DNA of 64,000 bases. It comes from Candidatus Omnitrophota bacterium (GTDB lineage Bacteria > Omnitrophota > Gorgyraeia > Zapsychrales > Fredricksoniimonadaceae). Shown in pieces: positions 252-53,456 of the stretch (positions within the stretch are counted from its first letter, which is position 1; every line of letters begins with the position of its first letter). The DNA lies in contig JAGWOI010000009.1 in the NCBI GenBank assembly GCA_028870995.1, forward strand, positions 7,085-71,084, read 5' to 3'. The position numbers and the translations under genes were made by a program. The notes under the pieces are model-generated. The model was not told where the DNA came from. It saw only the letters and a program-made list of their open reading frames with translations, and did not search any database.

Positions 252-1091
252 ATGGGCATCAAGCGTTTCAAACCATATACGAACGGTCTTCGCCACGCGG
301 CGCTGCCGGATTACAGCGAGTTGACCAAGGGCAAACCGGAAAAGTCCTTGCTCGAACCTTTGAAGAAATCGGGCGGACGTAATTCCTACGGCCGCATCAC
401 CTCGCGTCACCGCGGGGCCGGGCACAAGCGCATGTACCGTGTCATTGATTTCAAGCGCCAGCGCATTGACGATCCCGCCGAAGTTCTCGGCATCGAGTAC
501 GATCCCAACCGCACCTGCCGCATCGCGTTGATCCAGTACAAGAGCGACAAGACCAAAGCCTATATTTTAGCCCCCGTGGATCTGCGCGTGGGCCATGAAG
601 TCATCAGCACCAATAATGCCGATGTGGATTTTCAGGCCGGCAACTGCCTGCCGCTGCGCAAAATTCCGCTCGGCACCGGTGTCCATAATGTGGAATTGAA
701 ACCCGGCCAGGGCGGCCAGATGGCCCGTTCCGCCGGCACCTCGGCCCAGCTCATTGCCAAGGAAGGCAATGTCGCGCACCTGCGCCTGCCGTCCAGCGAA
801 GTCCGCAAGGTGTCCATCGATTGTCGCGCTACCATCGGTCAGCTCTCCAATGTGGAGAACGAAACGGTTTCCATCGGCAAAGCCGGCCGCAGCCGCTGGC
901 TGGGCCGCCGCCCGCAGTCGCGCGGCGTCGTCATGAACCCCGTCGACCATCCGCACGGCGGCGGTGAAGGCAAGGCGCCTCAAGGCAACCCTCATCCGGT
1001 CACCCCGTGGGGCAAACCGACCAAAGGTTTCAAGACCCGTAAACGTAGAAAATATTCCGATCATCTGATTGTCAAGAGGAGACACAAGTAA
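252..1091 (+). CDS. rplB: 50S ribosomal protein L2
   Basis: 279 aa. N-terminus [15 protein letters not shown]. Carries the conserved [19 protein letters not shown] and HPHGGGEGK motifs. Confidence 0.97.
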
Positions 1092-1092
1092 A

Positions 1093-1380
1093 ATGTCCCG
1101 TTCCGTTAAAAAAGGCGCTTACGTCGAAGAATCCCTGCAGCGCAGGTTTGACAAGGTCGTGGCCTCTGGCCAGCGCCAGCCGATCAAGACCTGGTCGCGC
1201 CGATCCACGATCATCCCCAATTTCGTCGGTTACACCTTTGCCGTGCACGACGGCCGCAAGCATGTGCCGGTGTTCGTCACCGAGAACATGGTGGGCATGA
1301 AGTTAGGCGATTTCGTGGCAACCCGTACGTTCAGAGCCCATGGCGGTGTCAAGGCCAAGAAGGCGATGCAGAAGAAATAA
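1093..1380 (+). CDS. rpsS: 30S ribosomal protein S19
   Basis: [22 protein letters not shown]...[29 protein letters not shown]. The ORF track begins at 1069, but the ATG at 1093 gives the canonical S19 N-terminus. Confidence 0.93.
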
Positions 1381-1464
1381 AGGCCGATTTTGCTGCTAAA
1401 AAATTAAGGAAATCGGCACATTGAATCAGTGGTAAAGGTCGTGGAATTTTTGGAAGGATAATTT
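1381..1464. repeat. Copy 1 of an ~85-bp intergenic repeat family (hairpin GCCGATTTT/AAAATCGGC plus GGAAGGA ribosome-binding site); fills the normally tiny rpsS-rplV spacer
   Basis: About 85% identical to 4841-4921 and 54310-54394. Begins right after the rpsS stop codon and ends at the rplV ATG. Confidence 0.85.
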
Positions 1465-1800
1465 ATGATCGCAATTGCTCGTGGTAAATATTTGAGAATT
1501 TCGTCGATGAAGATGCGCCAGGTCTGCGATGCCCTTCGCGGCAAGGATGTCCGTCAAAGCATGGCCATGCTGGCCCAGATCGAGAAGGGTGCCAGCCAGT
1601 TTGTCAAAAAGGTGCTGGATTCCGCGGTGAGCAACGCCAAGCAAAAAGGCTTGAGCGAAGAGCAGCTGTATATCAAGACCATCACCGCCAATCACGGCGG
1701 GGCCTGGAAACGTTTCCGCGCCGCTTCTTTCGGGCGTGCGACACCGATTTTGCGCCGTACGACGCATTTAACCGTAGGGTTGGATATCAAAACCAAATAA
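1465..1800 (+). CDS. rplV: 50S ribosomal protein L22
   Basis: 111 aa. ARGKYLRISSMKMRQVCDALRGKDV...TANHGGAWKRFRAASFGRATPILRRTTHLTVGL. Confidence 0.93.
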   Translation: MIAIARGKYLRISSMKMRQVCDALRGKDVRQSMAMLAQIEKGASQFVKKVLDSAVSNAKQKGLSEEQLYIKTITANHGGAWKRFRAASFGRATPILRRTTHLTVGLDIKTK

Positions 1801-1815
1801 AGGAGAAAATCACCT

Positions 1816-2562
1816 GTGGGTCAAAAAGTTCATCCGTTAGCCTTGAGACTTGGATATACTAAAAATTGGCGCAGCATCTGGTTTGCCCAGCGTCAGGACT
1901 ATTCCGCAAATATTAAGCAGGACTTCAAGATCCGCCGGTATATCCGTGAAAAATTTGAGCAGGCCGCCGTTTCCATGGTGGTCATCGAGCGCCTGGCCGA
2001 ACAGATCAAGGTCCGCATCCATACCGCGCGTCCCGGCGTCATCATCGGCCGCCGCGGGGCCGACATCGACCGTTTGCGCGCCGAGCTCAAGGACATCACC
2101 AAAAAGGACATGGACAAGCTGGTGGTCGATATCCAGGAGATCAAGAACCCCAATACCGACGCCCAATTGGTGGCCCAGACCGTGGCCTTCCAGCTGGAAA
2201 AGCGCGTGGCGTTCCGCCGTGCCATGAAGCGTTCCATCGAGCAGGCCCGCGCCGCCGGTGCCAAAGGCATCAAGATCCGCTGCGCCGGACGCTTGGGCGG
2301 TGCTGAAATGGCCCGCACCGAGAAGTATCATGAAGGCAAGGTGCCGCTGCAGACCCTGCGCGCCGACATCGATTATGGTTTCGCCGAGGCCAAGACCACC
2401 TACGGTTTGCTGGGGATCAAGGTTTGGATTTATAAAGGCGATGTGATCAAGGACCAGGAAGAGATCGAGGCCAAAGCCGCGGCTGCTGCGGTAGTTCCTT
2501 CAGCCGCACCGGCAGCTGAAGCTCCCGCTGCCGCACCTGTGACGGAAACAGCTCAATCATAA
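1816..2562 (+). CDS. rpsC: 30S ribosomal protein S3 (GTG start, Ala/Pro-rich C-terminal tail)
   Basis: MGQKVHPLALRLGYTKNWRSIWFA... with KH and S3-C domain motifs. C-terminal tail is AAAAAVVPSAAPAAEAPAAAP. Confidence 0.95.
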   Translation: MGQKVHPLALRLGYTKNWRSIWFAQRQDYSANIKQDFKIRRYIREKFEQAAVSMVVIERLAEQIKVRIHTARPGVIIGRRGADIDRLRAELKDITKKDMDKLVVDIQEIKNPNTDAQLVAQTVAFQLEKRVAFRRAMKRSIEQARAAGAKGIKIRCAGRLGGAEMARTEKYHEGKVPLQTLRADIDYGFAEAKTTYGLLGIKVWIYKGDVIKDQEEIEAKAAAAAVVPSAAPAAEAPAAAPVTETAQS

Positions 2563-2588
2563 TTTTGGTAAGGTAGGAGAAATTTGTT

Positions 2589-3005
2589 ATGTTATTAATG
2601 CCTAAGAGAGTCAAGTACCGCAAAACGCAAAAAGGGAAGTCCCGCGGCATTGCGACCACCGGCAACCAGCTGCACTACGGCGAGTATGGTTTGAAAGCCA
2701 TTGAGAACGGGTTCGTTCCGGCGCGCCAGTTGGAAGCTTCCCGTGTCGTGGTGGCCCGTAAACTGCGCGGTTCAGGCAAATTGTGGATCAGCGCTTTCCC
2801 GCACAAGTCCATCACCAAAAAACCGGCGGAAACCCGTATGGGTAAGGGCAAGGGTGATCTGGACCATTGGGTGGCCGTGGTCAAGCGCGGCAAGGTTATT
2901 TTTGAAATAGGCGGTATCCCGGAAGATTTTGCCAAACAGGTCCTGCGCCTGGTGGCCTTTAAACTGTCGGTGAAAACCAGATTTGTGGTCCGCGGGACCC
3001 ATTAA
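2589..3005 (+). CDS. rplP: 50S ribosomal protein L16
   Basis: MLLMPKRVKYRKTQKGKSRGIATTGNQLHYGEYGLKA. Confidence 0.95.
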   Translation: MLLMPKRVKYRKTQKGKSRGIATTGNQLHYGEYGLKAIENGFVPARQLEASRVVVARKLRGSGKLWISAFPHKSITKKPAETRMGKGKGDLDHWVAVVKRGKVIFEIGGIPEDFAKQVLRLVAFKLSVKTRFVVRGTH

Positions 3006-3017
3006 TAGAGGTATCTT

Positions 3018-3221
3018 ATGAAGATGAAGGATTTGACGAATTTAACGGAAGACGATTTGATCACCAAGGAAAAGCAGCTTAAGAAAGAGCTGTTTGACAT
3101 TGAGTCTCATCGCCAGATGGGCCGCGTCGAGAAGCCGGCCAGTTCCCGCAATATCAGAAGGGACATTGCGCGCATATTAACGGTTTTAAATGAGAGAAAA
3201 TCCAATGGAAAAAAGAGCTAA
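3018..3221 (+). CDS. rpmC: 50S ribosomal protein L29
   Basis: 67 aa. MKMKDLTNLTEDDLITKEKQLKKELFDIESHRQMGRVEKPASSRNIRRDIARILTVLNER. Confidence 0.93.
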   Translation: MKMKDLTNLTEDDLITKEKQLKKELFDIESHRQMGRVEKPASSRNIRRDIARILTVLNERKSNGKKS

Positions 3222-3465
3222 CCGCCGTCGGTTTTTAACTGCCGTGGTCATCAGCGATAAGATGGACAAGACCCGCGTCGTCCAGGTCCAGAACGTCCAG
3301 AAGCACGGCAAATATGAAAAGCAGGTGCGTGATTTTACCCGATACAAGGCGCATGATGAGAAAAATGCCGCCAAGGCCGGTGATGTGGTGCGTATCATGG
3401 AAACGCGGCCTTTATCCAAGGACAAGCGCTGGGTCATCAGCGAGATTGTCGGCTCAAAAGTCTAA
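3205..3465 (+). CDS. rpsQ: 30S ribosomal protein S17
   Basis: MEKRANRRRFLTAVVISDKMDKTRVVQVQNVQKHGKYEKQVRDFTRYKAHDEK. The ATG at 3205 is preferred over the track start at 3190. Overlaps the rpmC 3' end. Confidence 0.9.
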   Translation: MEKRANRRRFLTAVVISDKMDKTRVVQVQNVQKHGKYEKQVRDFTRYKAHDEKNAAKAGDVVRIMETRPLSKDKRWVISEIVGSKV

Positions 3466-3476
3466 AAGGGGGGCGT

Positions 3477-3845
3477 ATGATCCAATTAAAGACAATTCTA
3501 GATGTGGCTGACAATACCGGCGCCCGCAAAGCTTCCCTGATCGGCGTTTTGAAATCCAAAGGCAAAGGCTGGGCCAAGGTGGGCGATATTGTGAAGGTCA
3601 ATGTCAAGGAAAGCGCCCCGGATGCCGCCATTAAAAAGGGCAGCATGGCCAAGGGCATCATCGTGCGCACCAAGAAGGCGGTCCGCCGCCAGGACGGCAC
3701 CTATGTGCGTTTTGATACCAACGCGGTGGTCATTATCGACGATGCCGGCAATCCCAAGGGCACCCGTGTCTTCGGTCCCGTGGCCCGCGAGCTGCGTAAC
3801 ATGGAATTCATGAAAATAATTTCTTTAGCTCCAGAGGTAGTATAA
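3477..3845 (+). CDS. rplN: 50S ribosomal protein L14
   Basis: MIQLKTILDVADNTGARKASLIGVLKSKGKG. Confidence 0.96.
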   Translation: MIQLKTILDVADNTGARKASLIGVLKSKGKGWAKVGDIVKVNVKESAPDAAIKKGSMAKGIIVRTKKAVRRQDGTYVRFDTNAVVIIDDAGNPKGTRVFGPVARELRNMEFMKIISLAPEVV

Positions 3846-3922
3846 GGAATTGGACCATTTCCTTAACGTAAATTTATTATTGGAAACGGTCCAAGGGAAA
3901 TAGCAATCTTAAGGAAAATATT

Positions 3923-4234
3923 ATGCTAAGAATCAGACGTGACGATACGGTGATGGTGATGGCCGGCAAGGACAAGGGCAAGACCGGAAAGGTCGTCCGG
4001 GTTTTCCCCAAGGCTGGAAAAGCCATTGTGGAAAACGTCAATGTGGTCAAAAAGGCCGTCAAGAAAAGCGACACCTACCCCCAAGGCGGGTATGTGGAGC
4101 TGGAAAAGCCGCTGGCATTGGCGAATTTGATGCTGGTCGACAAGAAAGCGAACAAGGCGACCCGGTTCAAGGTGAAAGTTTTAAAAGACGGCTCCAGAGA
4201 GCGTATCGCGCTTTCAAGCCAGGAATCCATATAG
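3923..4234 (+). CDS. rplX: 50S ribosomal protein L24
   Basis: MLRIRRDDTVMVMAGKDKGKTGKVVRVFPKAGKAIVENVNVVKK (KOW motif). Confidence 0.94.
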   Translation: MLRIRRDDTVMVMAGKDKGKTGKVVRVFPKAGKAIVENVNVVKKAVKKSDTYPQGGYVELEKPLALANLMLVDKKANKATRFKVKVLKDGSRERIALSSQESI

Positions 4235-4289
4235 GCCCTGTTACTTTGATTGCGTAAGGGGTTAAACAATTCGTTCGGAGGTTAAGGCA

Positions 4290-4838
4290 GTGGCTGCACG
4301 CTTGTTAGAAAAATACCGTAAGGAAGTCATTCCTCAGATGCAGGAAAAATTCAAGATCGCCAATCCCATGGCTGTCCCGCAGTTGTCCAAGATCGTGGTG
4401 AACATGGGGGTGGGTGAGGCCATCGGCGATGCCAAGCTTCTGGACCGCGCCGCCGAGTACTTGGCCCAGATCACCGGACAAAAACCGATCATTTGCCGTT
4501 CTAAAAAGGCGATCTCGAATTTCAAGCTGCGCGAGAACCTGCCCATCGGCTGCAAGGTGACCTTGCGCCGGGCGCGGATGTACGAATTTCTTGACCGCCT
4601 GGTGAACGTGTCCATCCCGCGTATCCGTGACTTTAACGGCACGTCCCGCAAGGGTTTTGACCGTGACGGCAATTACACCATGGGCATCATCGACCAGGGC
4701 ATCTTTCCGGAAATTGATCCGTCGGTCCGCGATTACCGCGTCCAGGGGATGGATATTTCTTTCGTTTTCGAAGGCGGCAACAAGGAACAAAATTTTGAGG
4801 TCTTGCGTCTTTTAGGCATGCCTTTCAGCAAACAATAA
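4290..4838 (+). CDS. rplE: 50S ribosomal protein L5 (GTG start)
   Basis: 182 aa. ...LEKYRKEVIPQMQEKFKIANPMAVPQLSKIVVNMGVGEA... and GMDISFVF. Confidence 0.95.
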   Translation: MAARLLEKYRKEVIPQMQEKFKIANPMAVPQLSKIVVNMGVGEAIGDAKLLDRAAEYLAQITGQKPIICRSKKAISNFKLRENLPIGCKVTLRRARMYEFLDRLVNVSIPRIRDFNGTSRKGFDRDGNYTMGIIDQGIFPEIDPSVRDYRVQGMDISFVFEGGNKEQNFEVLRLLGMPFSKQ

Positions 4839-4840
4839 CA

Positions 4841-4921
4841 AGGCCGATTTTGCTACTAAAAGATTAAGGAAATCGGCACTTCGAATCAATGTAAAAGTAG
4901 TGGAACTTTTGGAAGGAATCT
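4841..4921. repeat. Copy 2 of the ~85-bp intergenic hairpin + ribosome-binding-site repeat; fills the rplE-rpsZ spacer
   Basis: AGGCCGATTTTGCTACTAAAAGATTAAGGAAATCGGCAC...GTGGAACTTTTGGAAGGAATCT then ATG. Confidence 0.85.
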
Positions 4922-5107
4922 ATGGCAAGAAAATCATTGGTCAACAAAGCTCTGGAACCCCCTAAATTTTCCGTGCGCCAGCACAACCGCTGCGGTTTGT
5001 GCGGCCGCCCCCGCGGTTACATGCGCCGTTTCGGCATTTGCCGTATCTGTTTTAGGGAACTCTCCTGGAAGGGTGAAATTCCAGGCGTGAAAAAAGCAAG
5101 CTGGTAA
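4922..5107 (+). CDS. rpsZ: 30S ribosomal protein S14, type Z (zinc-ribbon)
   Basis: 61 aa. [61 protein letters not shown] with CxxC...CxxC. Confidence 0.95.
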
Positions 5108-5124
5108 TAAGAGAGGGTAAGTAA

Positions 5125-5520
5125 ATGTCTGTTTCAGATCCGATCGCCGATACATTAACCATCATCCGCAACGCCGCCCGCGCCCGCAAGGAAACGGTCG
5201 AGTTGAAGGCCTCCAAACTGCTGGAGCGCCTGATGGCCATTTTCAAGAACGACGGTTATATCGAAGATTTCCGTTTATTGAAGGACAACAAGCAGGGCAT
5301 CATCAAGGTCTATTTGAAATACGAGAACAACAAACCGCTGATCCTGGGGCTCAAGCGTATCTCCCGTCCGGGCTTACGCGTGTACGCCGATAAGACCAGC
5401 GTCCCCAGGGTTCTCAACGGTCTCGGAACCGCGGTCATTTCCACCTCCAGGGGGGTCATTACCGACCGCGAAGCGCGTAAATTAAAGGTCGGCGGGGAAG
5501 TCGTTTGTCATATTTGGTAA
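5125..5520 (+). CDS. rpsH: 30S ribosomal protein S8
   Basis: MSVSDPIADTLTIIRNAARARKETVELKASKLLERLMAIFKNDGYIEDF. Confidence 0.95.
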   Translation: MSVSDPIADTLTIIRNAARARKETVELKASKLLERLMAIFKNDGYIEDFRLLKDNKQGIIKVYLKYENNKPLILGLKRISRPGLRVYADKTSVPRVLNGLGTAVISTSRGVITDREARKLKVGGEVVCHIW

Positions 5521-5533
5521 AGGATATTAAAAC

Positions 5534-6073
5534 ATGTCACGTATCGCAAAAACACCGGTAGAATTACCGAAAAACGTCAAGGTTTCCTTCGATAAGTCCG
5601 CGGTCAACGTGGAAGGCCCCAAGGGCAAGTTGTCCATGAGGCTGCCCGGGCAAGTGGCCTTGGAGAACAAGGACAACAAGATTTTCGTCAACCGTGTCAA
5701 CGACAGCAAACAGGCCAGGGCCAATCATGGCACCACCAAGCGCTTGATCGAGAACATGTGCGTGGGTGTTACCACCGGCCATAAAAAGGACCTGGAGATC
5801 CAGGGCGTCGGTTTCCGCGCCGCCGTGCAGGGCAACAAGCTCGTGTTGAACGTCGGCTTTTCCCATCCGGTGGAATATGAATTCCCCAAGGATGTCAAGG
5901 TGACGGCCGCAAAGCCCACGGAAATTTCCGTCGAGGGTGTGGACAAGGCCCTGGTGGGCCTGGTGGCCGCCAAGATCCGCGGGTTCAAACCGCCGGAACC
6001 CTACAAGGGCAAAGGTATTCGGTATGCAGGAGAAGTTGTCAAACGCAAACAAGGTAAACAGGTGACCAAGTAA
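5534..6073 (+). CDS. rplF: 50S ribosomal protein L6
   Basis: MSRIAKTPVELPKNVKVSFDKSAVNVEGPKGKL...; 179 aa with the two-domain L6 pattern. Confidence 0.94.
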   Translation: MSRIAKTPVELPKNVKVSFDKSAVNVEGPKGKLSMRLPGQVALENKDNKIFVNRVNDSKQARANHGTTKRLIENMCVGVTTGHKKDLEIQGVGFRAAVQGNKLVLNVGFSHPVEYEFPKDVKVTAAKPTEISVEGVDKALVGLVAAKIRGFKPPEPYKGKGIRYAGEVVKRKQGKQVTK

Positions 6074-6076
6074 CCT

Positions 6077-6439
6077 ATGCAAAACATCAAGGAACAAAAG
6101 AGGGTTTTTCGCCATCAACGCATCCGCAAGGGGATGACCGGCACCACGGACCGTCCGCGGTTGTGCCTGCACCGTTCTTTAAACAACTTGCAGGCCCAGA
6201 TCATTGACGATTCCGCTGGCAAGGTCCTGCTGGGCAAGTCGACCCTGGCCAAGGATGTCAAGTCTAAATCCAAAACCGGCGGCAATGTCAGCGCAGCCAC
6301 TATCCTGGGTGAAGCCGTGGCCCAGGAAGCCATTAAAAAGGGGATCAAAAAAGTTGCATTCGACCGCGGCGGGTATCTTTATCACGGCCGTATTAAGGCC
6401 TTCGCAGAGGCCGCACGTAAAGCAGGATTGGAGTTTTAA
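6077..6439 (+). CDS. rplR: 50S ribosomal protein L18
   Basis: ...[31 protein letters not shown]...[28 protein letters not shown]. Confidence 0.94.
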
Positions 6440-6443
6440 AACG

Positions 6444-7172
6444 ATGATGAAAGAAATCAAAAAAATTGACGAAAAAGATTTAGCCGTAAAAACCGCGACC
6501 CAGGCCGAGCAGATCCTGGAACAGGAAAAAGAAACCACTGTCCAGGAAGAAACCGCCGAGGCCGCTCCCGCAGGGGCCCAGCCGGAAGCCGGCGCGCCGC
6601 AACGGGGCGGACGCAAAGGCCGCGGGGAGCGCAGGCCTCCTAAGAAAACCACTTCCTTGACGGACAGTGGGTTGATCGAAAAAGTGGTCTCCATCAACCG
6701 CGTGTCCAAGACGACCAAAGGCGGCACCCGCCTGGCGTTTTCAGCCCTGGTGGTTGTCGGCGACGGCAAGGGCAAGGCCGGTTACGGCTTGGGCAAGGCC
6801 GGTGAAGTCGCGGGCGCCATTAAAAAAGCGCTGGCCGCGGCCAAAAAGCAGATGATCCCCATCCCCCGCAGGGGGACGACCATCACCCATGAGATCATCG
6901 GGCAATGCGGTTCAGCCAACGTGTTATTAAAGCCTGCCTCCGAAGGTACGGGCATCATCGCTTCCGGGGCCGTGCGCGCGGTTTGCGACGGGGCCGGGAT
7001 CACCAACATTTTGACTAAGTGCCACCGTTCCAATAATCCTATTAATGTGGTCAAGGCCACCTTTGACGGGCTCTCCCGCTTGAAGGCTGTAAGGGAGGCC
7101 GCACCACTTCCTACGGGAAATGAGAAAGCAGGGAATATATCCAATGCAAGTCCATCAGTTGAAAAGTCCTGA
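6444..7172 (+). CDS. rpsE: 30S ribosomal protein S5, with a ~70-aa acidic low-complexity N-terminal extension and a C-terminal tail
   Basis: The S5 core is [53 protein letters not shown]...ATFDGL. The ATG at 6444 follows the rplR stop; the track's longer ORF from 6204 overlaps rplR and is rejected. The 3' end overlaps rplO by 29 nt. Confidence 0.9.
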
Positions 7173-7623: not shown

Positions 7624-9026
<1,403 letters not shown>

Positions 9027-9030: not shown

Positions 9031-9668
9031 AGGTTATTTTATTAGGGCCTCCGGGCGCCGGCAAAGGTTCCCTGGCAGGTTTATTGAAAGAGAAATACCG
9101 GGTTGCCCATATCTCCACCGGAGACATGCTGCGCGAAGAGATCAAGACCGGCAGCGCCCTCGGCGCTGAGATCAAGGCGCTCATCACCAAAGGGGCCCTG
9201 GTGTCCGATGAGCTGGTGACTAGGCTCGTGGAGCAGCGTTTTGCCCATGATCCGGACTTGAAAAAAGGATACATGCTGGACGGTTTTCCCCGGACGGTCA
9301 AGCAGGCCCAGGACCTTGATGTGATATTGACCAGGGTGGGAATGCCTTTGGATTTTGCCTTGAATATGGAAGCGGACCAGGCCCTTTTGCTTAAGCGCCT
9401 GACCGGCCGCAGGGTCTGCCGCCAATGCGGGGCCTTGTTTCACATGACCAATAAGCCCCCTGCCAAAGAAGGTATTTGTGATACATGCGGGGGCCCTCTT
9501 TACCAGCGTTCGGATGATAATGAGGCTACGATCAAGGAACGCATGCGGGTTTACCGCGAGAGCACCCAGCCGATCATCGATTATTATGCCCAGCAGAACA
9601 AGTTGAAAATGCTGGACGCTAATTTGGATACGGACGTCCTCTGTCAATCGCTGGCTGCCATGTTGTAG
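9027..9668 (+). CDS. adk: Adenylate kinase (zinc-lid form)
   Basis: MKVILLGPPGAGKGSLAGLLKEKY... (P-loop). Lid carries CRQCGALFH...CDTCGG. Confidence 0.96.
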
Positions 9669-10664: not shown

Positions 10665-10778
10665 ATGAAGGTTAAATCATCGGTCAAAAGAATTTGTTCA
10701 AGTTGCAAGATCATCCGTCGTAACCGGGTGGTTCGCGTCATTTGCACCAACCCCAAACATAAGCAAAGACAAGGATAA
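10665..10778 (+). CDS. rpmJ: 50S ribosomal protein L36
   Basis: Not in the ORF track because it is under 60 aa. Manual translation gives [37 protein letters not shown], the L36 signature with a C..C...C..H zinc ribbon. Confidence 0.9.
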
Positions 10779-10783
10779 ACGTT

Positions 10784-11182
10784 ATGCCCAGAATTTTAGG
10801 TATAGATTTGCCTAAGGAAAAACGGATTGAAGCGGCCCTGCCGTACATCTACGGTATCGGTCCTGCCCGCAGCCGCCAGATTCTGGAACAGGCCCAGGTC
10901 AGCGGCAACAAGCGCGCCAAGGATTTGACCGAAGAGGAGATTTTGAAGATCACCAACCTGATCCAGAAGAACTACGTCACGGAAGGTGATTTGCGCCGCG
11001 AGATCAACGAGAATGTGCGCCGTCATATGGAGATCGGCACCTACCGCGGCCTGCGCCACCGCAAGGGGCTGCCGTGTAGGGGCCAAAGGACAAAGACCAA
11101 CGCCCGCACCCGCAAAGGCAAGAAGCCGGTGGTGGGTCATATTATTAAGAAGGAAGCAGCTCCTGCTGCCAAGAAAGCTTAA
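10784..11182 (+). CDS. rpsM: 30S ribosomal protein S13
   Basis: [35 protein letters not shown]. Confidence 0.96.
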
Positions 11183-11637: not shown

Positions 11638-11735
11638 CATAAAACCTGCCGCTCTCCTTAAGGAGAATCCCATGTTGGGATACGGCTTCTCTCAAGCTCG
11701 GTGCGGCAAAAATGGGAAAGTGAGTAAACAAGTCT

Positions 11736-12362: not shown

Positions 12363-12435
12363 AAAAGTTTATTAACTCGTATGACCGCCCGGGTCGACCA
12401 CCTGGGCGGGGACATAAAACCTAAGGAGAGTCATC

Positions 12436-13425
12436 ATGGGTGTCAAATGGCGCGATTTTCAAATGCCGAAACGCTTGGATTGCGAAGAAGCTTCTTATAC
12501 GAACACGTACGGTAAATTTGTGGCAGAACCCTTTGAGCGCGGTTACGGCGTGACCTTGGGCAATTCCTTGCGCCGCATTTTGTTGTCATCCATCGAAGGC
12601 TCGGCCGTGACCTCGATCCGCATCGAAGGGGTAGCGCATGAGTTTTCCACCATGCCCGGTGTTTTGGAATCCGTGACCGAGATCGTCTTGAACATCAAGG
12701 CCCTGGTCATCCGTTCCCATTCCAAGACCCCCAAGACCGTTTATATCAAGGCCAACAAGAAGGGTGAACTCAAGGCGAAAGATATTATCTCCGACGAAAT
12801 GGTCGAGATTTTAAACGCTAATCATCACCTGTTGACCCTGACGCAGGACATTCCCTTCAACATGGAGCTGGAAATTTCCCGCGGCCGCGGTTATGTGCCG
12901 GCCGACCAGAACAAGAAGGAAGGCGCTCCGGTAGGGACCATCGTCGTGGATTCCATTTTCACGCCCATCGTGAAGGTCAATTTCACCGTGGAGAACACCC
13001 GTGTCGGCCAGCGCACCGATTATGACCGCCTGGTCGTCGAGATTTTCACCAACGGCGCCATCAACCCCAAGGAAGCCCTGCTGTACGGGGCCAATATCCT
13101 GCAGCGCCATTTGGATGTGTTCGTGGCCTACGGCCAGCTGCCGGAAGAGGAAGAAGTGGAAGAGGAAGTTTCCGCCGAGGAAGAGGCGTTGTACACCAAG
13201 TTGCGCCTGCCGATCTCCGAGCTGGAGCTTTCCGTGCGTTCTTCCAACTGCCTCAAGGACGCCAATATCAAGACCATCGGCGACCTGGTCCGCCGTCAGG
13301 AAGTGGAATTGCTGGAGTTCCGCAATTTTGGCAAGAAATCATTGACGGAAATCCAGGACATCCTTAAAGCCATGGGCCTGTCCCTTGGTATGAAGGTTGA
13401 TACCAAAAAATTAAGGACCAAGTAA
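12436..13425 (+). CDS. rpoA: DNA-directed RNA polymerase alpha subunit
   Basis: [41 protein letters not shown]. The C-terminal domain carries [22 protein letters not shown]. Confidence 0.95.
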
Positions 13426-13426
13426 T

Positions 13427-13993
13427 ATGAGACACGCGAAGGAAGGCAATCGTTTAAGCCGCAACAAAAGTTTAAGAAAAGCGACCTTGCGCGACATGGC
13501 CCGTGCCGTCCTGGTGCAGGAACGCATTTGCACCACCCGTGCCAAGGCCAAGGAAGCCAGGAAGCTTATCGAGAGATTGATCACCCTGGGCAAGAAGGAC
13601 ACGCTGGCGGCACGCCGCCGGGCTTTCGCCATCCTTTGCGACCATGGGTTGGTTTCCCAATTGTTCAAGCAGACCGCCCCGCGCTTCAAGGCGCGTAACG
13701 GCGGCTATACCCGCATTATCCCTTATATGCAGCGCAGCGGCGACAATGCCGCCCTGGCCTTCCTGGAACTTACCGAGAAATCCAGGGAGATCATCACCGG
13801 TACCAAGCGCGCCAAGGCCGAGAAGGAAGCGGCGGACACCAAGACCGTTTCCGAAGCGGAGACTAAACCCGCAGCGGAAACCAAGCCGGCAGCGCCGGGG
13901 CATTCCAAGGCTGATGTCAAGACCAAGCCTAAGGCTGCGGCCAAGCCCACCGGTGTCAAGAAGCTGTTCCAGCGCAAGACCGGAGGCGAATAA
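13427..13993 (+). CDS. rplQ: 50S ribosomal protein L17 with a ~65-aa Lys/Ala/Pro-rich C-terminal tail
   Basis: MRHAKEGNRLSRNKSLRKATLRDMARAV...GGYTRIIPYMQRSGDNAALAFLEL. The tail is a low-complexity K/A/P/E stretch. Confidence 0.93.
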   Translation: MRHAKEGNRLSRNKSLRKATLRDMARAVLVQERICTTRAKAKEARKLIERLITLGKKDTLAARRRAFAILCDHGLVSQLFKQTAPRFKARNGGYTRIIPYMQRSGDNAALAFLELTEKSREIITGTKRAKAEKEAADTKTVSEAETKPAAETKPAAPGHSKADVKTKPKAAAKPTGVKKLFQRKTGGE

Positions 13994-14023
13994 GCCGCCG
14001 CTTGCGTTAACAAGCAATTCCAG

Positions 14024-14052
14024 CCCCGTCTGAACAAGACGGGGCTTTTTTA
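14024..14052 (+). terminator. Rho-independent terminator after rplQ
   Basis: Hairpin CCCCGTCTGAACAAGACGGGG followed by TTTTTTATT. Confidence 0.8.
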
Positions 14053-14066
14053 TTGCCCTTTTCTCG

Positions 14067-14123
14067 TTGGACCGTTTCCGCGTCAGCCCTTGCTGCTATT
14101 GAGGTTATGATAGAAGTGTCCCC
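14067..14123. repeat. 57-bp bipartite motif TTGGACCGTTTC-N24-GGTTATGATAGAAGTGTCCCC; a second copy lies at 38974-39030
   Basis: Both flanking blocks match block-for-block at the two loci (39 of 41 positions identical) and the 24-nt spacing is the same. Both copies sit just 3' of a conserved gene at the edge of AT-rich DNA. Confidence 0.7.
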
Positions 14124-14129
14124 TTGCCT

Positions 14130-14294
14130 GGTTAAGCCGGTATTGCTCCCGAAACGGGGATATTTTCGCCGTCCGCTACGCTTTACGGCTCGGTTTCTAT
14201 CGCGATAAGGCATACGCGGAAACCTCGCCGTAAAACCTTGCGGACATTTGGCGAAAAATCCCTGAATGTTTCGTTCCGCAATACCGGCTTAACC
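14130..14294. repeat. Giant imperfect palindrome, family 1, copy 1 (165 bp)
   Basis: Terminal arms are GGTTAAGCCGGTATTGC / GCAATACCGGCTTAACC. The core GAAACGGGGATATTTTCGCCGTCCGCTACG...CGCGGAAACCTCGCCGTAAAACCTTGCGGACATTTGGCGAAAAATCCCTGAATGTTTC is shared with the copies at 25634-25810 and 26635-26802. Confidence 0.9.
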
Positions 14295-14313
14295 GTAGAG
14301 GATACCATTTCTG

Positions 14314-14343
14314 TTAGCATATGCAAATCATTCTGGTATAATT
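14314..14343 (+). promoter_or_regulatory. Near-consensus sigma70 promoter with extended -10: TTAGCA, 17-nt spacer ending TGG, then TATAAT
   Basis: -35 TTAGCA (14314-14319), 17-nt spacer, TGn extension, -10 TATAAT (14338-14343). This lies 15 nt upstream of the island's first ORF. Confidence 0.7.
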
Positions 14344-14357
14344 AGAAATTCCTAAAT

Positions 14358-14768
14358 ATGACACTAAAGCAGAAAAAATTTCTTGGTCGAGAGAGCCTTA
14401 GAGAATCTTGGGTTAAAAGCACAGATACTCCTTTACGTTTTTTTGTTCAGCTATTATTTATAATTGAAGGAACTCTGGGGCTGGTATTTATTGCAGGAGT
14501 TAAATATAATTTGGACAAAACTATTTTAATTTGGATCTTTTTGTCCTTAGTTGGACTTGGCGGACTTGCTTTAATAATGGTTTTTCTACTTGTTGTTTTT
14601 TTTCCAAAGAATTTAGTGTTTGATAAAGATGCTCATTTATTTGAAAGAGCTTTAGAATACGGAGATGACGCGCATATAATGGCGTATTCCCAGTTAAGAA
14701 GTGTGGAATTAATATCTCCTCCAAAACAAATTACAAATCAACGTCAGGAAGGAACTATAAATGAGTAA
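14358..14768 (+). CDS. Hypothetical small membrane protein (2 predicted TM helices); AT-rich
   Basis: 136 aa. Hydrophobic segments FFVQLLFIIEGTLGLVFIAGV and ILIWIFLSLVGLGGLALIMVFLLVVFF. First gene behind the island promoter. I recognise no family. Confidence 0.6.
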   Translation: MTLKQKKFLGRESLRESWVKSTDTPLRFFVQLLFIIEGTLGLVFIAGVKYNLDKTILIWIFLSLVGLGGLALIMVFLLVVFFPKNLVFDKDAHLFERALEYGDDAHIMAYSQLRSVELISPPKQITNQRQEGTINE

Positions 14769-15036
14769 GGCTTTCCTGATAACATATGACTTAAAATATA
14801 AGTCCACACAGAATTATGTGCCTTTTTTTAATGCTATAAGGACTGCTAAATGGTGGCATTATCTTCCAGATGCATGGATTATTATAACTGATAAAGATGC
14901 TACTTATTGGCAAAACACACTGGTTCCACTAACGTTTCAAGGAGATTTTCTACTAATCATTGAAGTAAAACGACAATCTGGCGGGTGGCTTCCTTTAGAA
15001 GCCTGGAATTGGATAAATGAAAATATTCCAACATAA
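14761..15036 (+). CDS. Hypothetical 91-aa protein, translationally coupled to the upstream membrane protein (ATGA overlap)
   Basis: MSKAFLITYDLKYKSTQNYVPFFNAIRTAKWWHYLPDAWIIITDKDATYWQNTLVPLTFQGDFLLIIEVKRQSGGWLPLEAWNWINENIPT. Trp-rich, with no recognisable family. Its start overlaps the stop of 14358-14768. Confidence 0.55.
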   Translation: MSKAFLITYDLKYKSTQNYVPFFNAIRTAKWWHYLPDAWIIITDKDATYWQNTLVPLTFQGDFLLIIEVKRQSGGWLPLEAWNWINENIPT

Positions 15037-15221
15037 TTGAATATATTTAGTTTTAGAACGAGCCGGGTCCCTGAAAGGGGATAGGTCTGTTTGAATTGAC
15101 AGCCGATCCCCGTCGTGATATTCTACATGCAGAACAAGAAGCATTCCGACCGTAACCATCCCCGCCGCTTCTTATTATCAAACCCCCTTTAATTCGTAGC
15201 AACGACGAAGGATTTACTTTC

Positions 15222-15632
15222 ATGAAGAATAAATCAAGAAAGTCAGGGGAGGATTTTAACCATTGGAACCAGCAGAAGCAAAAGACGCATTTCGACAAGC
15301 AAAGGCCTTTTTTCCATGAACAGGAAGTATGGTTTTGTGCGCTGGGAGTTAATATTGGTTTTGAACAAGATGGCCGGGGCAATGGATTCTTACGACCGGT
15401 TCTGATCCTAAAGAAATTTAATAACGAAATATTCTGGGCTTTGCCCATGACTAAAAATTTAAAGCAAGGGACGTATTACGCTGCCATTTCATTTAGAAAA
15501 AATACCCAAAGCACCTTAATTCTTTCTCAAATTCGCTTAGTTGATGCAAAAAGACTGGTATATAAAGCAGGAGCTGTTAAACAGCAGGATTTTGAATCGA
15601 TTAAAGAGAGGGTTAGGCAAATACTTGCCTAA
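15222..15632 (+). CDS. PemK/MazF-family endoribonuclease toxin-like protein (divergent, with an N-terminal extension); no cognate antitoxin ORF detected
   Basis: ...QEVWFCALGVNIGFEQDGRGNGFLRPVLILKKFNNEIFWALPMT...LILSQIRLVDAKRLVYKAGAVKQQDFESIKERV. This parallels the MazF pattern of a G-rich loop, RPxLIL, then ADQVKSID-KRL...G.L....I. Confidence 0.6.
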   Translation: MKNKSRKSGEDFNHWNQQKQKTHFDKQRPFFHEQEVWFCALGVNIGFEQDGRGNGFLRPVLILKKFNNEIFWALPMTKNLKQGTYYAAISFRKNTQSTLILSQIRLVDAKRLVYKAGAVKQQDFESIKERVRQILA

Positions 15633-15708
15633 AAAAATTAACCCCCGTTCTTGACGGGGGAGGGCCTTTCAGCCATTTGTGGTTTAAGTATAACATGGCA
15701 TATGATTA

Positions 15709-15953
15709 TGTCAAACGTTAAAAAGAGGTGTCACATGGGAAAAACAAAAAGTTTTCTGTTTGACGCAAAAGAAACGAAATATTTGTGGAGATATTCGGAT
15801 GATGCTATGCGTACAACAAGAAGGTTAAGTGAAATGTATCCAGATATCCCTAAGAAGCTCGATGCTGTAGTACATGTTATCGAATTTCACAAGTTAACAA
15901 GTATACCAAGGAGTAAAAGAACAAAAATATTGAATTGGTTAGATAAGGAATAA
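15709..15953 (+). CDS. Hypothetical protein (start ambiguous; the ORF track gives 15651-15953)
   Basis: MSNVKKRCHMGKTKSFLFDAKETKYLWRYSDDAMRTTRRLSEMYPDIPKKLDAVVHVIEFHKLTSIPRSKRTKILNWLDKE. The track start at 15651 overlaps the upstream hairpin, so an internal ATG (15709 or 15736) is more likely. Confidence 0.45.
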
Positions 15954-15965
15954 AAGGGAGGGGAG

Positions 15966-16397
15966 ATGCCCAAAAAGCCCGTCAAAAAATGCTGCATGTG
16001 CGGCAAGCCGGTCTTCTCGCCCAAATCCATCTATTGCCGTGACTGTTCTCATTTCAGCGCCCGGATGTCCGATGAAAGGTTTTCACCGGAAACCCGCCAA
16101 CAGCTTTGGAATTACGTCCGCCGTAACAAAGGCTTTTACTGTTATTACACCGGTTTAAAACTCGATGTGTTTGATTACGCGAGTCCTTATTTCCTGGAGT
16201 TTGACCATGTCACACCGCAAAACCCCAAGAAGATCGTGATGTGCTGCGCCTGGTTCAATGAAATTAAAGGGGACATGACCTTAAACGAATTAAAGGGTTC
16301 TGTTAAGCAGCTCTTTAACTACTGGTTTAAGGGTATAAAAATAAAAAAGCGAAAATTCCGCTATTGGTACCGCCTTATCCCTGATTTTTGTAAATAA
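15966..16397 (+). CDS. Small free-standing HNH endonuclease with an N-terminal zinc ribbon
   Basis: N-terminus CCMCGKPVFSPKSIYCRDCSHF (a 4-Cys motif). The HNH core is EFDHVTPQNPKKIVMCCAWFNEIKGDMTLNEL (His...Asn...Asn/Lys). Confidence 0.7.
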   Translation: MPKKPVKKCCMCGKPVFSPKSIYCRDCSHFSARMSDERFSPETRQQLWNYVRRNKGFYCYYTGLKLDVFDYASPYFLEFDHVTPQNPKKIVMCCAWFNEIKGDMTLNELKGSVKQLFNYWFKGIKIKKRKFRYWYRLIPDFCK

Positions 16398-16430
16398 TTT
16401 TGCTCCTCTTCGTAGTGCCCTCGGGAAGGG

Positions 16431-25633: not shown

Positions 25634-25810
25634 GCGTATAGGTTAACCGGTATTGCTTCAGAAACGGGGATATTTTTGCCGTCCGCTACGGTTTACAGCT
25701 CGGCTGCTATCGCGATAAGGCATTCGCGGCAGCCTCGCTGTAAAGCCTTGCGGACATTTGGCAAAAAATCTCTGATCGTTTCTGAAGCAATACCGGCTTA
25801 ACCTATACGC
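25634..25810. repeat. Giant imperfect palindrome, family 1, copy 2 (177 bp)
   Basis: Arms are GCGTATAGGTTAACCGGTATTGCTTCAGAAACG / CGTTTCTGAAGCAATACCGGCTTAACCTATACGC. The core is shared with copies 1 and 3, with compensatory changes between the arms. Confidence 0.9.
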
Positions 25811-25837: not shown

Positions 25838-26596
25838 ATGGTTTACGAACTTAATAGATTCGTGAGTAACGACAAGTATGTTGACAAAAAAGACATTATT
25901 GACGCAATACGTAAAACCGCAAAACAGAACGGCGATAGCCCTTTAGGCGTCGGTAGATTCGAAAAAGAGACAGGAATAAAAAGTTATGATTGGGGAAAAT
26001 ATTGGGCACGGTTTGGGGATGCACAAAAGGAGGCTGGTTTTAAGTCAAATCAGTTACAAATTGCCTATACTGACGAGTTTATTATTGAGAAGATAATTGG
26101 TGTGATTTGTAAGCTTGATAAATTTCCAACCCTACGCGAAATGGTGGTAGAACATCATAACGATTCTGAGTTTCCGAGTTATAGTGTTTTTAGACGCTTA
26201 GGTACGAGGGAACAAATTGTAAATAAAGTAATGGAATATTGTAAGGATAAGAGTGCTTACGATGATATTGTTACTCTTTGTGGATCAATTCTTGGGAGTT
26301 CCAAAGATGAAAAGGTTATGGATGAGTCTAACATTCAGATTGGAGAAGTATACCTTTTCAAGTCGTGTCGGTATTATAAAATTGGAAAAACATATGACAC
26401 CGTGAGGCGGGGCAGTGAACTTAGGATTCAATTACCAGAAAAATGCGAATTAATACATTCTATTAAGACTGATGATCCAAGTGGTATCGAAGCTTATTGG
26501 CATAAACGATTTGAGACGAAAAGGATGAATGGTGAGTGGTTTGACTTAAGCTTTGCTGAAGTAAAGGCATTTAAGCTTTGGAGACGTATAAATTAA
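25838..26596 (+). CDS. Free-standing homing-endonuclease-like protein: two N-terminal HNH/homing-endonuclease-associated repeats plus a C-terminal T5orf172/GIY-YIG-like nuclease domain
   Basis: C-terminus is GEVYLFKSCRYYKIGKTYDTVRRGSEL...LIHSIKTDDPSGIEAYWHKRFETKRMNGEWFDL (the GIY..YIG..R..E..N pattern of T5orf172). N-terminus has two repeats of ...P..FGxxxxA..EAGF type (SPLGVGRFEKETGIKSYDWGKYWARFGDAQKEAGF). AT-rich. Confidence 0.7.
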   Translation: MVYELNRFVSNDKYVDKKDIIDAIRKTAKQNGDSPLGVGRFEKETGIKSYDWGKYWARFGDAQKEAGFKSNQLQIAYTDEFIIEKIIGVICKLDKFPTLREMVVEHHNDSEFPSYSVFRRLGTREQIVNKVMEYCKDKSAYDDIVTLCGSILGSSKDEKVMDESNIQIGEVYLFKSCRYYKIGKTYDTVRRGSELRIQLPEKCELIHSIKTDDPSGIEAYWHKRFETKRMNGEWFDLSFAEVKAFKLWRRIN

Positions 26597-26634: not shown

Positions 26635-26802
26635 GGATGGATAGGTAGGATGTTTTCAGAACGGGGATATTTCCGCCGTCCGCTACGGTTTATGGCTCGG
26701 TTTCTATCGCAATAAAGCATACGCGGAAACCTCGCCATAAAACCTTGCGGACATTTGGCGGAAAATCCCTGAATATTCTGAAAACATCCTACCTATCCAT
26801 CC
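26635..26802. repeat. Giant imperfect palindrome, family 1, copy 3 (168 bp)
   Basis: Arms are GGATGGATAGGTAGGATGTTTTCAGAA / TTCTGAAAACATCCTACCTATCCATCC. The core is conserved while the outer arms differ from copies 1 and 2 yet remain perfectly self-complementary. Confidence 0.9.
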
Positions 26803-26838
26803 GTCCAAGCGTAAGATGGGAAGCGTGTAAGGCGTACA

Positions 26839-37913: not shown

Positions 37914-38954
37914 ATGGCTGTTGAAACTATTAAATGGATCAATGGTGCGGCCCGTATCATTGATCAAACCAAACTTCCCCGTCAATTTAAATACCTCTAT
38001 TGCCGCGACGTCAAAACCATGTGGCAGGCCATCAAGCGCCTGCAGGTGCGCGGCGCGCCAGCCATCGGTGTTGCTGCCGCCTTTGGCGTTTTGTTAGGCA
38101 TTCAGAAATTCAAGGGTTCGGATAAAAGGAAGTTCCTGCAATTGTTCCATGAAACCTGTGATTATTTGAGCACATCCCGCCCGACGGCGGTGAATCTTTT
38201 CAACATGCTCAATGAAATGCGTGCCGTCGTGACGCATAATCCTCAGGCCGATGTGGCCACCTTAAAAAAGGCCCTGTTCCTGCAGGCCATGACCATTTTT
38301 GAGGCGGACCGCGAGGTCTGCCGGCAAATGGGGGAGCACGGTGCCAAACTGATCAAGAACGGCATGCGCTGTTTGACGGTTTGCAATGCCGGGGCCCTGG
38401 CTACTGTTGATTACGGCACGGCTCTAGGCGTTTTTTACAGTGCCAAGGGGCGGGGCAAGAAATTCAGCGTCTATTCCTGCGAGACCCGTCCCTTATTGCA
38501 GGGGGCAAGGCTCACCTGTTGGGAACTGCTGCAGCAGAAGATCGATACCACGCTTATCTGCGACAATATGGCTGCGACCCTGATGGCGCAGGGGAAGGTG
38601 GACATTATTTTTACCGGTGCTGACCGCATCGCCTCCAACGGGGATGCCGCCAACAAGATCGGCACCTACATGCTGGCGGTCCTGGCCCGGCATCACGGCA
38701 TTCCTTTTTATGTGGTGGCGCCCAGCACTACCTTTGATTTGAAGATAAAGTCCGGCAGGCAGATCCCCATCGAAGAGCGGCACAGTGATGAAGTCACGCA
38801 TTTTGCGGGAGTGCCCACAGCTCCCAAGGGCGTTAAAGTCTATAATCCGGCCTTTGACGTGACGCCGGCTAAGCTCATTGCCGGCATCGTGACCGAACAC
38901 GGCATCATCCGAGCGCCTTTTGTCAAAAATATCAAACGTCTTCTCTTAAATTAG
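37914..38954 (+). CDS. mtnA: S-methyl-5-thioribose-1-phosphate isomerase (eIF-2B alpha/beta/delta family)
   Basis: 346 aa. RGAPAIGVAAAFGVLLG...CNAGALATVDYGTALGV...GADRIASNGDAANKIGTY. Confidence 0.85.
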   Translation: MAVETIKWINGAARIIDQTKLPRQFKYLYCRDVKTMWQAIKRLQVRGAPAIGVAAAFGVLLGIQKFKGSDKRKFLQLFHETCDYLSTSRPTAVNLFNMLNEMRAVVTHNPQADVATLKKALFLQAMTIFEADREVCRQMGEHGAKLIKNGMRCLTVCNAGALATVDYGTALGVFYSAKGRGKKFSVYSCETRPLLQGARLTCWELLQQKIDTTLICDNMAATLMAQGKVDIIFTGADRIASNGDAANKIGTYMLAVLARHHGIPFYVVAPSTTFDLKIKSGRQIPIEERHSDEVTHFAGVPTAPKGVKVYNPAFDVTPAKLIAGIVTEHGIIRAPFVKNIKRLLLN

Positions 38955-38985
38955 TTGGACCGTTTCAAATTAGTTGGACCGTTTC
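38948..38985. repeat. Perfect tandem duplication, 2 x 19 bp (AAATTAGTTGGACCGTTTC), which includes the mtnA stop codon
   Basis: 38948-38966 and 38967-38985 are identical. The second unit begins the 57-bp motif (38974-39030) that is shared with 14067-14123. Confidence 0.85.
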
Positions 38986-39285
38986 TACGGGAACCTATGA
39001 GACTCTTAGGGTTATGGCAGAAGTGTCCCCAAAACTTGAAGGGAATGGACCAAGTAGAGTCAATTCACCTTCTCCCAAGGGTTTCATATAATTTCCCAAT
39101 TCGATATCACAGTTTGTGATCTTAAGTCAGGGTGGTTCGCGCAAACCGCGACAAAAAGATTATCTCCATATTCCAGGCCATTAAGGCCTTATTGTCCAAC
39201 AAAGAAGTGAAATCGAGAAAACGGGCGCCTTTGGGATTTCAAATACCGAAGGGAATTAAGTAGCTGTTTTATTCTTCTCTTGTAG

Positions 39286-52988: not shown

Positions 52989-53419
52989 GGCAAGGGCTTT
53001 GTTTTTTATTCCTTTTCTTAAGTTGCGCCTGTGTTCAGGCGGCGCAGCCCCAAGTCTGTCATGACCATGATTGCGTCTCCGTCGAGGTTGTTTCCAAACA
53101 GGTGGACATGGAACGGGGACTGATGTACCGCACCGGCCTGGCGCCCAAGGCGGGCATGCTTTTTATTTTTGCCTCCGAGGGCCGGCAGTCCTTTTGGATG
53201 CAGAACATGCGTTTCAATCTGGATATTCTATGGATCGACTCCCGGAGGCGCATCGTTTATATCGGCCGCGGAATTCCCGCCTGCCGTACGGATTCCTGCC
53301 CCGTTTATACGCCGGATGAGCCGGCCCGCTATGTCTTGGAAGTCAACAGCGGTTTTAGCGATGCCCATCACTGGAAAGAGGGGGATAAACTCATCTTTAA
53401 TGATATTTTAAAAAAATAA
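52985..53419 (+). CDS. DUF192-family secreted protein
   Basis: Signal peptide, then GMLFIFASEGRQSFWMQNMRFNLDILWIDSRRRIV. Confidence 0.7.
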   Translation: MRQGLCFLFLFLSCACVQAAQPQVCHDHDCVSVEVVSKQVDMERGLMYRTGLAPKAGMLFIFASEGRQSFWMQNMRFNLDILWIDSRRRIVYIGRGIPACRTDSCPVYTPDEPARYVLEVNSGFSDAHHWKEGDKLIFNDILKK

Positions 53420-53456
53420 ACTGGTTTTTTCCGCTTTACTATTTAAAATAAAAACA

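Follow-up and report, generated by a model that had tools for sequence, protein, structure and literature searches.

A 73-74-nt unit inserted at three Shine-Dalgarno sequences of an Omnitrophota bacterium is probably a non-autonomous, duplicative insertion element

What brings nearly the same short piece of DNA immediately upstream of start codons at three places of one genome, two of them within a ribosomal protein operon? The question is raised by a 64-kb stretch of a Candidatus Omnitrophota bacterium (64,000 nucleotides, nt, of contig JAGWOI010000009.1, assembly GCA_028870995.1; hereafter, the window), in which an earlier examination of the letters alone (the sequence-only reading) had proposed three elements, about 85% identical, ahead of rplV, rpsZ and a response-regulator gene. 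We read and aligned these stretches and found three copies of one unit on the + strand, at 1381-1464, 4841-4921 and 54310-54394, exactly as proposed; the copies are separated by 3.5 kb and about 50 kb. The positions of the flanking stop and start codons also bore out the gene context. Copy 1 lies between the rpsS stop codon, ending at 1380, and the rplV ATG at 1465, and copy 2 between the rplE stop, ending at 4838, and the ATG at 4922 of rpsZ, a 61-aa zinc-type S14 gene. At the third locus, the open reading frame (ORF) of a HATPase_c histidine kinase (53457-54335) terminates within the copy, which is followed at 54395 by the ATG of a receiver-domain response regulator.

The inserts, delimited as described below, show 83.8-86.5% identity in pair comparisons and are roughly equidistant from one another. 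A profile built from the three copies recovered each of them with E = 1e-24 to 1e-25, and with all nhmmer filters off it retrieved no further copies from the window, including diverged ones. The 17-mer ATTAAGGAAATCGGCAC is invariant in all three, and a 16-mer search of the window allowing up to 3 mismatches yielded 7 matches against 0.75 expected, a number reached in 0 of 100 shuffles. Protein matches assign the organism to Candidatus Omnitrophica (Omnitrophota). The sequence covered for this species comprises the window and two 6-kb contigs of a second metagenome-assembled genome (MAG), GCA_028865175.1, which correspond to window positions 774-7105 (99.26% identity) and 52785-59154 (98.3-99.8%). 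These contigs contain all three copies at the same positions, unchanged and with identical profile scores.

Comparison with relatives, all Omnitrophota and identified by matches to ribosomal protein S3 (81-93% amino-acid identity) or to the kinase, indicated that the three sites were originally empty. The rpsS-rplV spacer is 7 nt long in L017 and in the JGI contig of P0001, 14 nt in L021-L023 and in L025, 9 nt in L024 and 20 nt in L057-L062; likewise, the rplE-rpsZ spacer is of 7 nt in the JGI contig and in L057 and L058, 9 nt in L024 and L025, and 14 nt in L019. At the third locus, L026-L028, three MAGs whose kinase is 80% identical to that of the window, have a 14-nt overlap between kinase and regulator genes. 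Two relatives hold other inserts at ribosomal junctions, unrelated or only partly related to the window element, and a profile search of 168 kb of the relatives' loci did not detect the element itself. Since the relatives have short spacers or an overlap and lack the element, the long spacers are derived in the lineage of the window, and the presence of one unit at three unrelated loci implies that it was copied. The proposal of a small duplicative or mobile intergenic insertion with a translation-initiation region is thus supported as regards both insertion and copying. Long spacers conserved among relatives, which would have weakened it, were not what we found (7-20 nt, 7-14 nt and a 14-nt overlap at the three loci, respectively).

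The third locus is the most informative. The relatives read ...CAGGAGGCGGGACATG, and the window reads CAACAGG, then the insert (CCGATC...ATGGAGGG), then AGGCTGGACATG. Deleting 73 nt, with 2 nt of positional ambiguity, regenerates CAGGAGGC and gives a kinase tail KIQQ+EAGHETS of exactly the length seen in homologues. Kinase homologues end in ...QEAGHEAS, and 5 of the 11 aligned homologues end in ...HE(A/T)(S/P), a terminus dictated by read-through of the regulator's ATGAARCATCTTAA. There is no 3-bp target duplication at this copy, because duplication of AGG would make the tail one residue short; copies 1 and 2 are uninformative in this respect, as their AGG...AGG fits both interpretations. After the insertion the kinase still has exactly 292 aa, the length of its closest homologue, P0123, with seven residues swapped for seven. 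The sequence-only reading had assigned the kinase end QQADLATNN and its stop to the element; ADLATNN and the stop do come from it, and the two Q codons are native.

The junctions with the relatives' sequences trim the unit to 73-74 nt, shorter than the ~85 bp first proposed, and define the following features:

1384-1457, + strand: copy 1 insert, 74 nt, between rpsS and rplV; the junction slides 2-3 nt; inferred ancestral spacer AGG^ATAATTT (10 nt; ^ marks the boundary of native and inserted sequence throughout).
4844-4916, + strand: copy 2 insert, 73 nt, between rplE and rpsZ; inferred ancestral spacer CAAGG^AATCT (10 nt).
54313-54385, + strand: copy 3 insert, 73 nt, in the former overlap of the kinase 3' end and the regulator Shine-Dalgarno (SD) sequence; ancestral CAACAGG^AGGCTGGACATG.
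1383-1417, + strand: left-subterminal hairpin of copy 1, GCCGATTT / AAATCGGC, 19 nt between arms; -11.7 kcal/mol, z -2.7 (all hairpins folded alone as RNA).
4843-4877, + strand: left-subterminal hairpin of copy 2; -11.1 kcal/mol, z -3.1.
54312-54345, + strand: left-subterminal hairpin of copy 3, with 6 bp, a C-A mismatch and then 2 bp; -9.4 kcal/mol, z -2.0.
1403-1419, 4863-4879 and 54331-54347, + strand: invariant 17-nt core ATTAAGGAAATCGGCAC, comprising the loop end and the 3' arm.
1452-1458, + strand: rebuilt rplV SD, GGAAGG^A, from the element right end and one native A; 6 nt before the ATG.
4911-4917, + strand: rebuilt rpsZ SD, GGAAGG^A; 4 nt before the ATG.
54380-54388, + strand: response-regulator SD region, GGAGGG^AGG, from the element end and a native AGG.
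54312-54335, + strand: new kinase C-terminus ADLATNN and TAA, encoded by the element; it replaces the ancestral EAGHETS, which overlapped the regulator start.

With these boundaries, the junctions of all three copies read AGG^CCGAT...GGARGG^A, so that copy 1 becomes TAA-AGG[74 nt]ATAATTT-ATG and copy 2 TAA-CAAGG[73 nt]AATCT-ATG, and both imply ancestral spacers of 10 nt with an AAGGA SD, as in the relatives. Each copy is therefore a derived insertion in sense orientation into the AGG^A of an SD: in 3 of 3 cases the insertion point is the native SD core, 5-9 nt upstream of the start codon, and the right end of the element together with the native A restores GGAAGGA or GGAGGGAGG at the same distance from the ATG as before. 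This qualifies the idea that each copy provides the whole 5' untranslated region (UTR) and its own ribosome-binding site: GGARGG does belong to the element, the last 5-9 nt before the ATG are native spacer, and the SD in use is a hybrid of GGARGG and the native A.

The internal structure is simple. The arms GCCGATTT/AAATCGGC constitute the sole inverted repeat conserved in all copies, forming 8 bp and a U-G pair with 19-22 nt between arms, so the hairpin noticed from the letters is real, with these arms and not the ...AAAATCGGC first given. The stem is preceded by AAAG, CAAG or ACAG, and the loop has ~17-19 nt; CAYYGAATCA follows the hairpin, and an A/T-rich tail of 35 nt leads to the right end GGARGG. 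One pair of the stem is lost in copy 3 through an uncompensated T-to-C change, and this copy as a whole folds no better than shuffles (z = +0.2). A second conserved hairpin in the tail was considered and rejected, because the right-hand AAAAGT/ACTTTT pairing is specific to copy 2, with a weak equivalent or none in copies 1 and 3. The inserts have a GC content of 39%, versus 53% for the window. The unit is small (73-74 nt) and non-coding, with stop codons that close 8 of the 9 forward frames, and is present in three copies in 64 kb.

In all, these data probably reflect three copies of one lineage-specific, non-coding, non-autonomous and duplicative insertion element of 73-74 nt. Copying would depend on a putative trans-acting enzyme recognising the hairpin and a short target. 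The pattern would be most like single-strand insertion of the Y1/HUH type (IS200/IS605- or RAYT-like), 3' of a fixed short target and without target duplication; the likeness comes from the fixed target 5' of the left end, the lack of duplication, the left-subterminal hairpin and the single orientation. The cumulative GC skew rises across the whole window, which would make the target strand the lagging-strand template. The element may persist in tightly coupled junctions because it would be translationally self-sufficient: the first ~42 nt have stops in nearly every frame, so that an upstream ORF that formerly overlapped the next gene is still terminated, and the right end with the native A would recreate the SD at the original distance from the ATG. 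The predicted consequences are that stop and start are no longer coupled, that a stable hairpin (about -11 kcal/mol) stands between the cistrons in the mRNA and, at copy 3, that a 7-residue kinase C-terminus is replaced; the first two would be the cost of carrying the element.

The main rival on mechanism dispenses with a transposase, and attributes the copies to microhomology-mediated template switching or gene conversion between SD regions (AGG / GGARGG), that is, to segmental copying of a leader. The junction ambiguity of 2-3 nt (GG/AGG) could be microhomology, and the lack of terminal inverted repeats (TIRs), of a second hairpin, of a target duplication and of a nearby transposase, as well as the few, roughly equidistant copies and the failure to find any outside the species, are all compatible with such an origin. 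However, boundaries 73-74 nt apart are repeated three times to the nucleotide, at sites 3.5 kb and about 50 kb from each other, and a homology of 2-3 nt is very short for repeated, precise template switching; besides, the right-end motif recurs in another genome with a different hairpin, suggesting a modular family (see below). We thus consider this rival unlikely.

The main rival on function, already raised as an alternative in the sequence-only reading, is a co-opted cis-regulatory RNA leader that would subject rplV, rpsZ and the response regulator to shared control of translation through an RNA-binding regulator or a thermo- or ligand-sensor; a CsrA-type protein recognising repeated GGA motifs may serve as an example. 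Its appeal lies in the strictly sense orientation directly 5' of start codons, in the invariant 17-nt core and in the GGA motifs, which number three or four (AAGGAAA where loop and stem meet, GTGGAA and GGARGGA). CNYYGAA may also pair, in a long-range helix that includes one compensatory pair, with the U-rich bases immediately preceding the SD, and the copies are unchanged between the two strains. Nevertheless, zero changes across ~250 nt are not significant at a strain divergence of 0.7-1.7%, three sequences offer essentially no covariation, and one nominally compensatory pair is too little to indicate a selected structure, particularly as the broken stem pair of copy 3 is uncompensated and its whole-element fold does not differ from shuffles. 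The element is absent from every relative examined, which argues against an ancestral regulatory feature, has no Rfam match even at permissive thresholds, and precedes a gene set without obvious functional logic. This alternative thus found no supporting evidence, and we judge it quite improbable. Finally, although the sequences come from MAGs, an assembly or chimerism artefact is ruled out by the occurrence of all three insertions at the same positions in two independent assemblies that differ by 0.2-1.7%, the copies themselves differing by 13-16% from each other within flanking genes that are intact and colinear with those of relatives.

Rfam at gathering thresholds returned only a tRNA elsewhere in the window and, in permissive E-value mode, nothing on the elements beyond chance-level matches; consensus scans for a sigma-70-like promoter or an intrinsic terminator found none inside any copy. 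A sigma-54 promoter, CGGCAC-N-TTGAAT, was rejected by eye against the GG-N10-GC spacing, because the -12 GC is absent, and so was a leader mini-ORF, TTG-AAT-CAG-TGG-stop after an internal AAGGA, because copy 2 has no start and the stem sequesters the internal SD. The two ends of the element are not complementary and there are no TIRs; the 3 copies found include no inverted pair, and we detected no similarity with other repeat families of the window.

The closest functional analogues are the Neisseria REP2 (contact-regulatory element) and the Borrelia IR, TIR-less dispersed repeats with 5' internal stem-loops that directly precede ORFs and provide them with a 5' UTR and a ribosome-binding site (PMC3184786). 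The window element shares with them the lack of TIRs, the 5' stem-loop and a ribosome-binding site directly ahead of an ORF, here a hybrid with native sequence. However, REP2 is 120-150 bp long, with a promoter, an ATG and two stem-loops, and occurs in 23-26 copies per genome, whereas the unit described here has 73-74 nt and one conserved hairpin, with no sigma-70-like site or other promoter consensus, and the ATG is native. It also lies within operons, at stop/start junctions, in three known copies, and shows no recognised sequence similarity to REP2 or the Borrelia IR.

As to mechanism, the left end of IS200/IS605 elements inserts 3' of a fixed tetra- or pentanucleotide without target duplication (PMC5027513), and both ends carry subterminal imperfect palindromes (PMC3201880). 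The fixed short target, the left hairpin and the single orientation on the lagging-strand template are shared with derivatives of this family mobilized by 'peel and paste' (PMC5027513; PMC3201880). All three copies follow AGG and precede A, cleanly so at copy 3, a rule that rests on n = 3 and might reflect survivorship. Unlike in that family, only the left hairpin is conserved, no TnpA was found among the window ORFs scanned, and the target is of 3-4 nt as deduced from three sites.

Repetitive extragenic palindromic sequences (REPs) and the mosaic elements that they form (BIMEs), which RAYT transposases mobilise, are short, non-coding palindromic repeats in intergenic or intercistronic position, which are co-transcribed and can affect mRNA stability (PMC2817692; PMC3184786). 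REPs have 20-40 nt, are GC-rich, with a 2-4-nt loop and a GT(A/G)G head, and occur in more than 100 copies per genome, often as inverted pairs (PMC2817692). The window element is likewise a short palindromic repeat in intercistronic position, but differs in its loop of ~17 nt, its 35-nt tail, its AT-rich insert, its heads (AAAG/CAAG/ACAG, without GT(A/G)G) and the single orientation of all copies. Miniature inverted-repeat transposable elements (MITEs) such as ERIC, Correia/CREE and RUP are small, non-autonomous and co-transcribed, form RNA hairpins and, in some cases, lengthen genes at the 3' end or alter the decay of mRNA (PMC3184786). Copy 3 resembles some of them in rewriting a protein C-terminus, yet MITEs are defined by TIRs and target-site duplications, neither of which is present here. 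The general kind, a small non-autonomous dispersed repeat, is therefore already known, and the sequence family is new; its potentially distinctive trait is the insertion into, and regeneration of, an SD, as seen at three sites.

Searches of large collections indicated a very narrow distribution. The 19-base core pattern AAGGAAATCGGCACNNNGAATC matched 5 loci in 185,579 GTDB species representatives and 9 loci in JGI metagenome contigs, all of them chance matches without the flanking element. The 16-mer gave 28 matches in IMG/VR, all in unrelated coding sequence, blastn against plasmid sequences returned no match to the element, and no candidate protein reading through it, in forward or reverse open frames, was found in a collection of 5.8 billion clusters. 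Within the collections searched, only one species has this family, and its two assemblies are 98-99% identical.

A single match in a relative hints at a wider, modular family, or else at a shared old insertion. In L020 (assembly GCA_041643075.1), a close relative whose S3 is 93% identical, the rpsS-rplV insert is a different double palindrome, and its 3' part, TGTAAAGGTAGTCGAA-AGG, is like the window element's right end, with 15 of 17 nt identical. Across ~143 kb of relatives' loci, nothing else came within 1 mismatch of the 16-nt consensus; by hand estimate, ~0.003 chance matches would be expected for a fixed 16-mer, a figure that is too favourable because the motif was chosen after the match had been seen. 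A bolder reading, which we regard as conceivable although on the doubtful side, is that of a selfish insertion sequence homing on SDs, with AGGA on the mRNA-sense (lagging-template) strand as its target and frame-independent stops plus a replacement SD as its cargo, in a modular family that combines a conserved right end (TGTAAARGTAGTSGAA...GG) with interchangeable hairpins, as hinted by the L020 insert. Such an element may colonise the overlapping or coupled junctions of compact Omnitrophota genomes at almost no cost.

Several observations weigh against a mobile element, and particularly against SD targeting. Only three copies are known, so that copy number, orientation bias and target rule all rest on n = 3, and the strand bias is confounded with gene orientation. 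Apparent targeting could be a survivorship effect, since native spacers have only ~10 nt and any surviving insertion would lie near the SD. There are no TIRs and only one conserved hairpin, where the ends of IS200/IS605 elements normally have a hairpin each. Members of that family have a TnpA gene somewhere in the genome, and no transposase, RAYT or Y1 gene was found among the 20 window ORFs scanned against Pfam, namely those uncharacterised or adjoining a repeat or an element copy. The family is rare and not demonstrably active, with no copy in representative genomes or JGI contigs and no recent filled/empty polymorphism among the genomes compared, and the insertions cannot be closely dated because the nearest empty-site genomes are ~16% diverged in rpsC DNA.

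The background of this lineage is clearly permissive for such insertions: other families of hairpin repeats occupy ribosomal protein spacers of the window and of two relatives, L019 and L020. In the window, the rplN-rplX spacer (3846-3922) has 77 nt, versus 1-46 nt in relatives, and contains a 13-bp hairpin, TTGGACCATTTCC...GGAAACGGTCCAA, whose arm GTTGGACCGTTTC recurs after rplQ (14066-14123) and as a partial tandem at 38953/38973 (38953-39030); this repeat is a second family invading the ribosomal protein operon. The rpsK-rpsD (11638-11735, 98 nt) and rpsD-rpoA (12363-12435, 73 nt) spacers are also long and contain GC-rich hairpins, for instance CCGCCCGGGTCGACCACCTGGGCGG, which could be an S4-type autoregulatory leader or processing sites. 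In L019, an Omnitrophota contig of 1.29 Mb, five ribosomal protein junctions contain inserts that measure ~110-320 nt as called (8138-8458, 9408-9581, 10724-10905, 12610-12764 and 13514-13627). Two families account for four of these junctions: a long imperfect palindrome (GTCACAAG...) at rpsS-rplV and rpsZ-rpsH, and GTCATTCTGAGCGAAGCGAAGAATC... plus AAAAGGCCCNATTTCTTCGACRTCGAAA at rpsC-rplP and rplX-rplE. In the same contig, a short AAAAGGCC...TCGAAAG motif is found two times directly downstream of the start of rplV, where the call seems to be wrong, and rpsZ is uncalled. L020 contains three unrelated palindromic inserts in its S10 operon, at L4-L23, rpsS-rplV and rplV-rpsC (1628-1710, 3121-3184 and 3542-3687).

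The window also contains other putative mobile DNA. Positions 56218-56510, ~290 nt between a PMT_2-family gene and a dihydrolipoamide-dehydrogenase-like gene, have imperfect TIRs of ~23 nt, AAACAGGATAAATTTATTGTTTC ... GAAACAACAAATTTATCCTGTTT, and look like a MITE with strain-level presence/absence, as the sequence is missing from the 98-99% identical MAG contig L001; its presence in the window and absence from the sister assembly indicate recent turnover of small elements in the species. The same spacer of L026 contains related sequence (12717-12992), inverted relative to the window. Three nearly perfect palindromes of ~165 nt, 84-88% identical, lie at ~14130-14295, ~25634-25810 and ~26636-26803, two of them sharing GGTTAACCGGTATTGC... 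termini. Two of the palindromes flank an ORF (25838-26596) with MUG113/T5orf172 (GIY-YIG-like) and HNH-repeat matches; this ORF, located between MlaE permease and ABC ATPase genes, looks like a mobile insertion splitting an mla-type operon. Lastly, directly after the rplQ terminator, positions 14000-16400 form a low-GC island (39% versus 53%) with five short ORFs, four of them without Pfam match and one coding for a PemK/MazF-type toxin (15222-15632); the island is probably an integrated mobile or toxin-antitoxin island.

As it stands, the element is a repeat of a kind already familiar, low in copy number and restricted to one species, and its immediate importance is modest. More broadly, the window, L019 and L020 together indicate that ribosomal protein spacers of Omnitrophota have been repeatedly colonised by different hairpin repeats, and a literature search on intergenic repeats of Omnitrophota found no paper describing such colonisation in the phylum. 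These repeats affect gene calling, with rplV and rpsZ starts mis-called or missed in L019 and L020, as well as the use of spacer length as a conserved trait. If the SD is indeed the target, the element would be an unusually clean case of a mobile element for which a translation-initiation signal is both target and cargo, and a natural 'decoupling cassette' made of stop codons, a hairpin and an SD. Such targeting would also account for the entry of repeats into the most conserved and tightly coupled operon of a streamlined genome with the host surviving.

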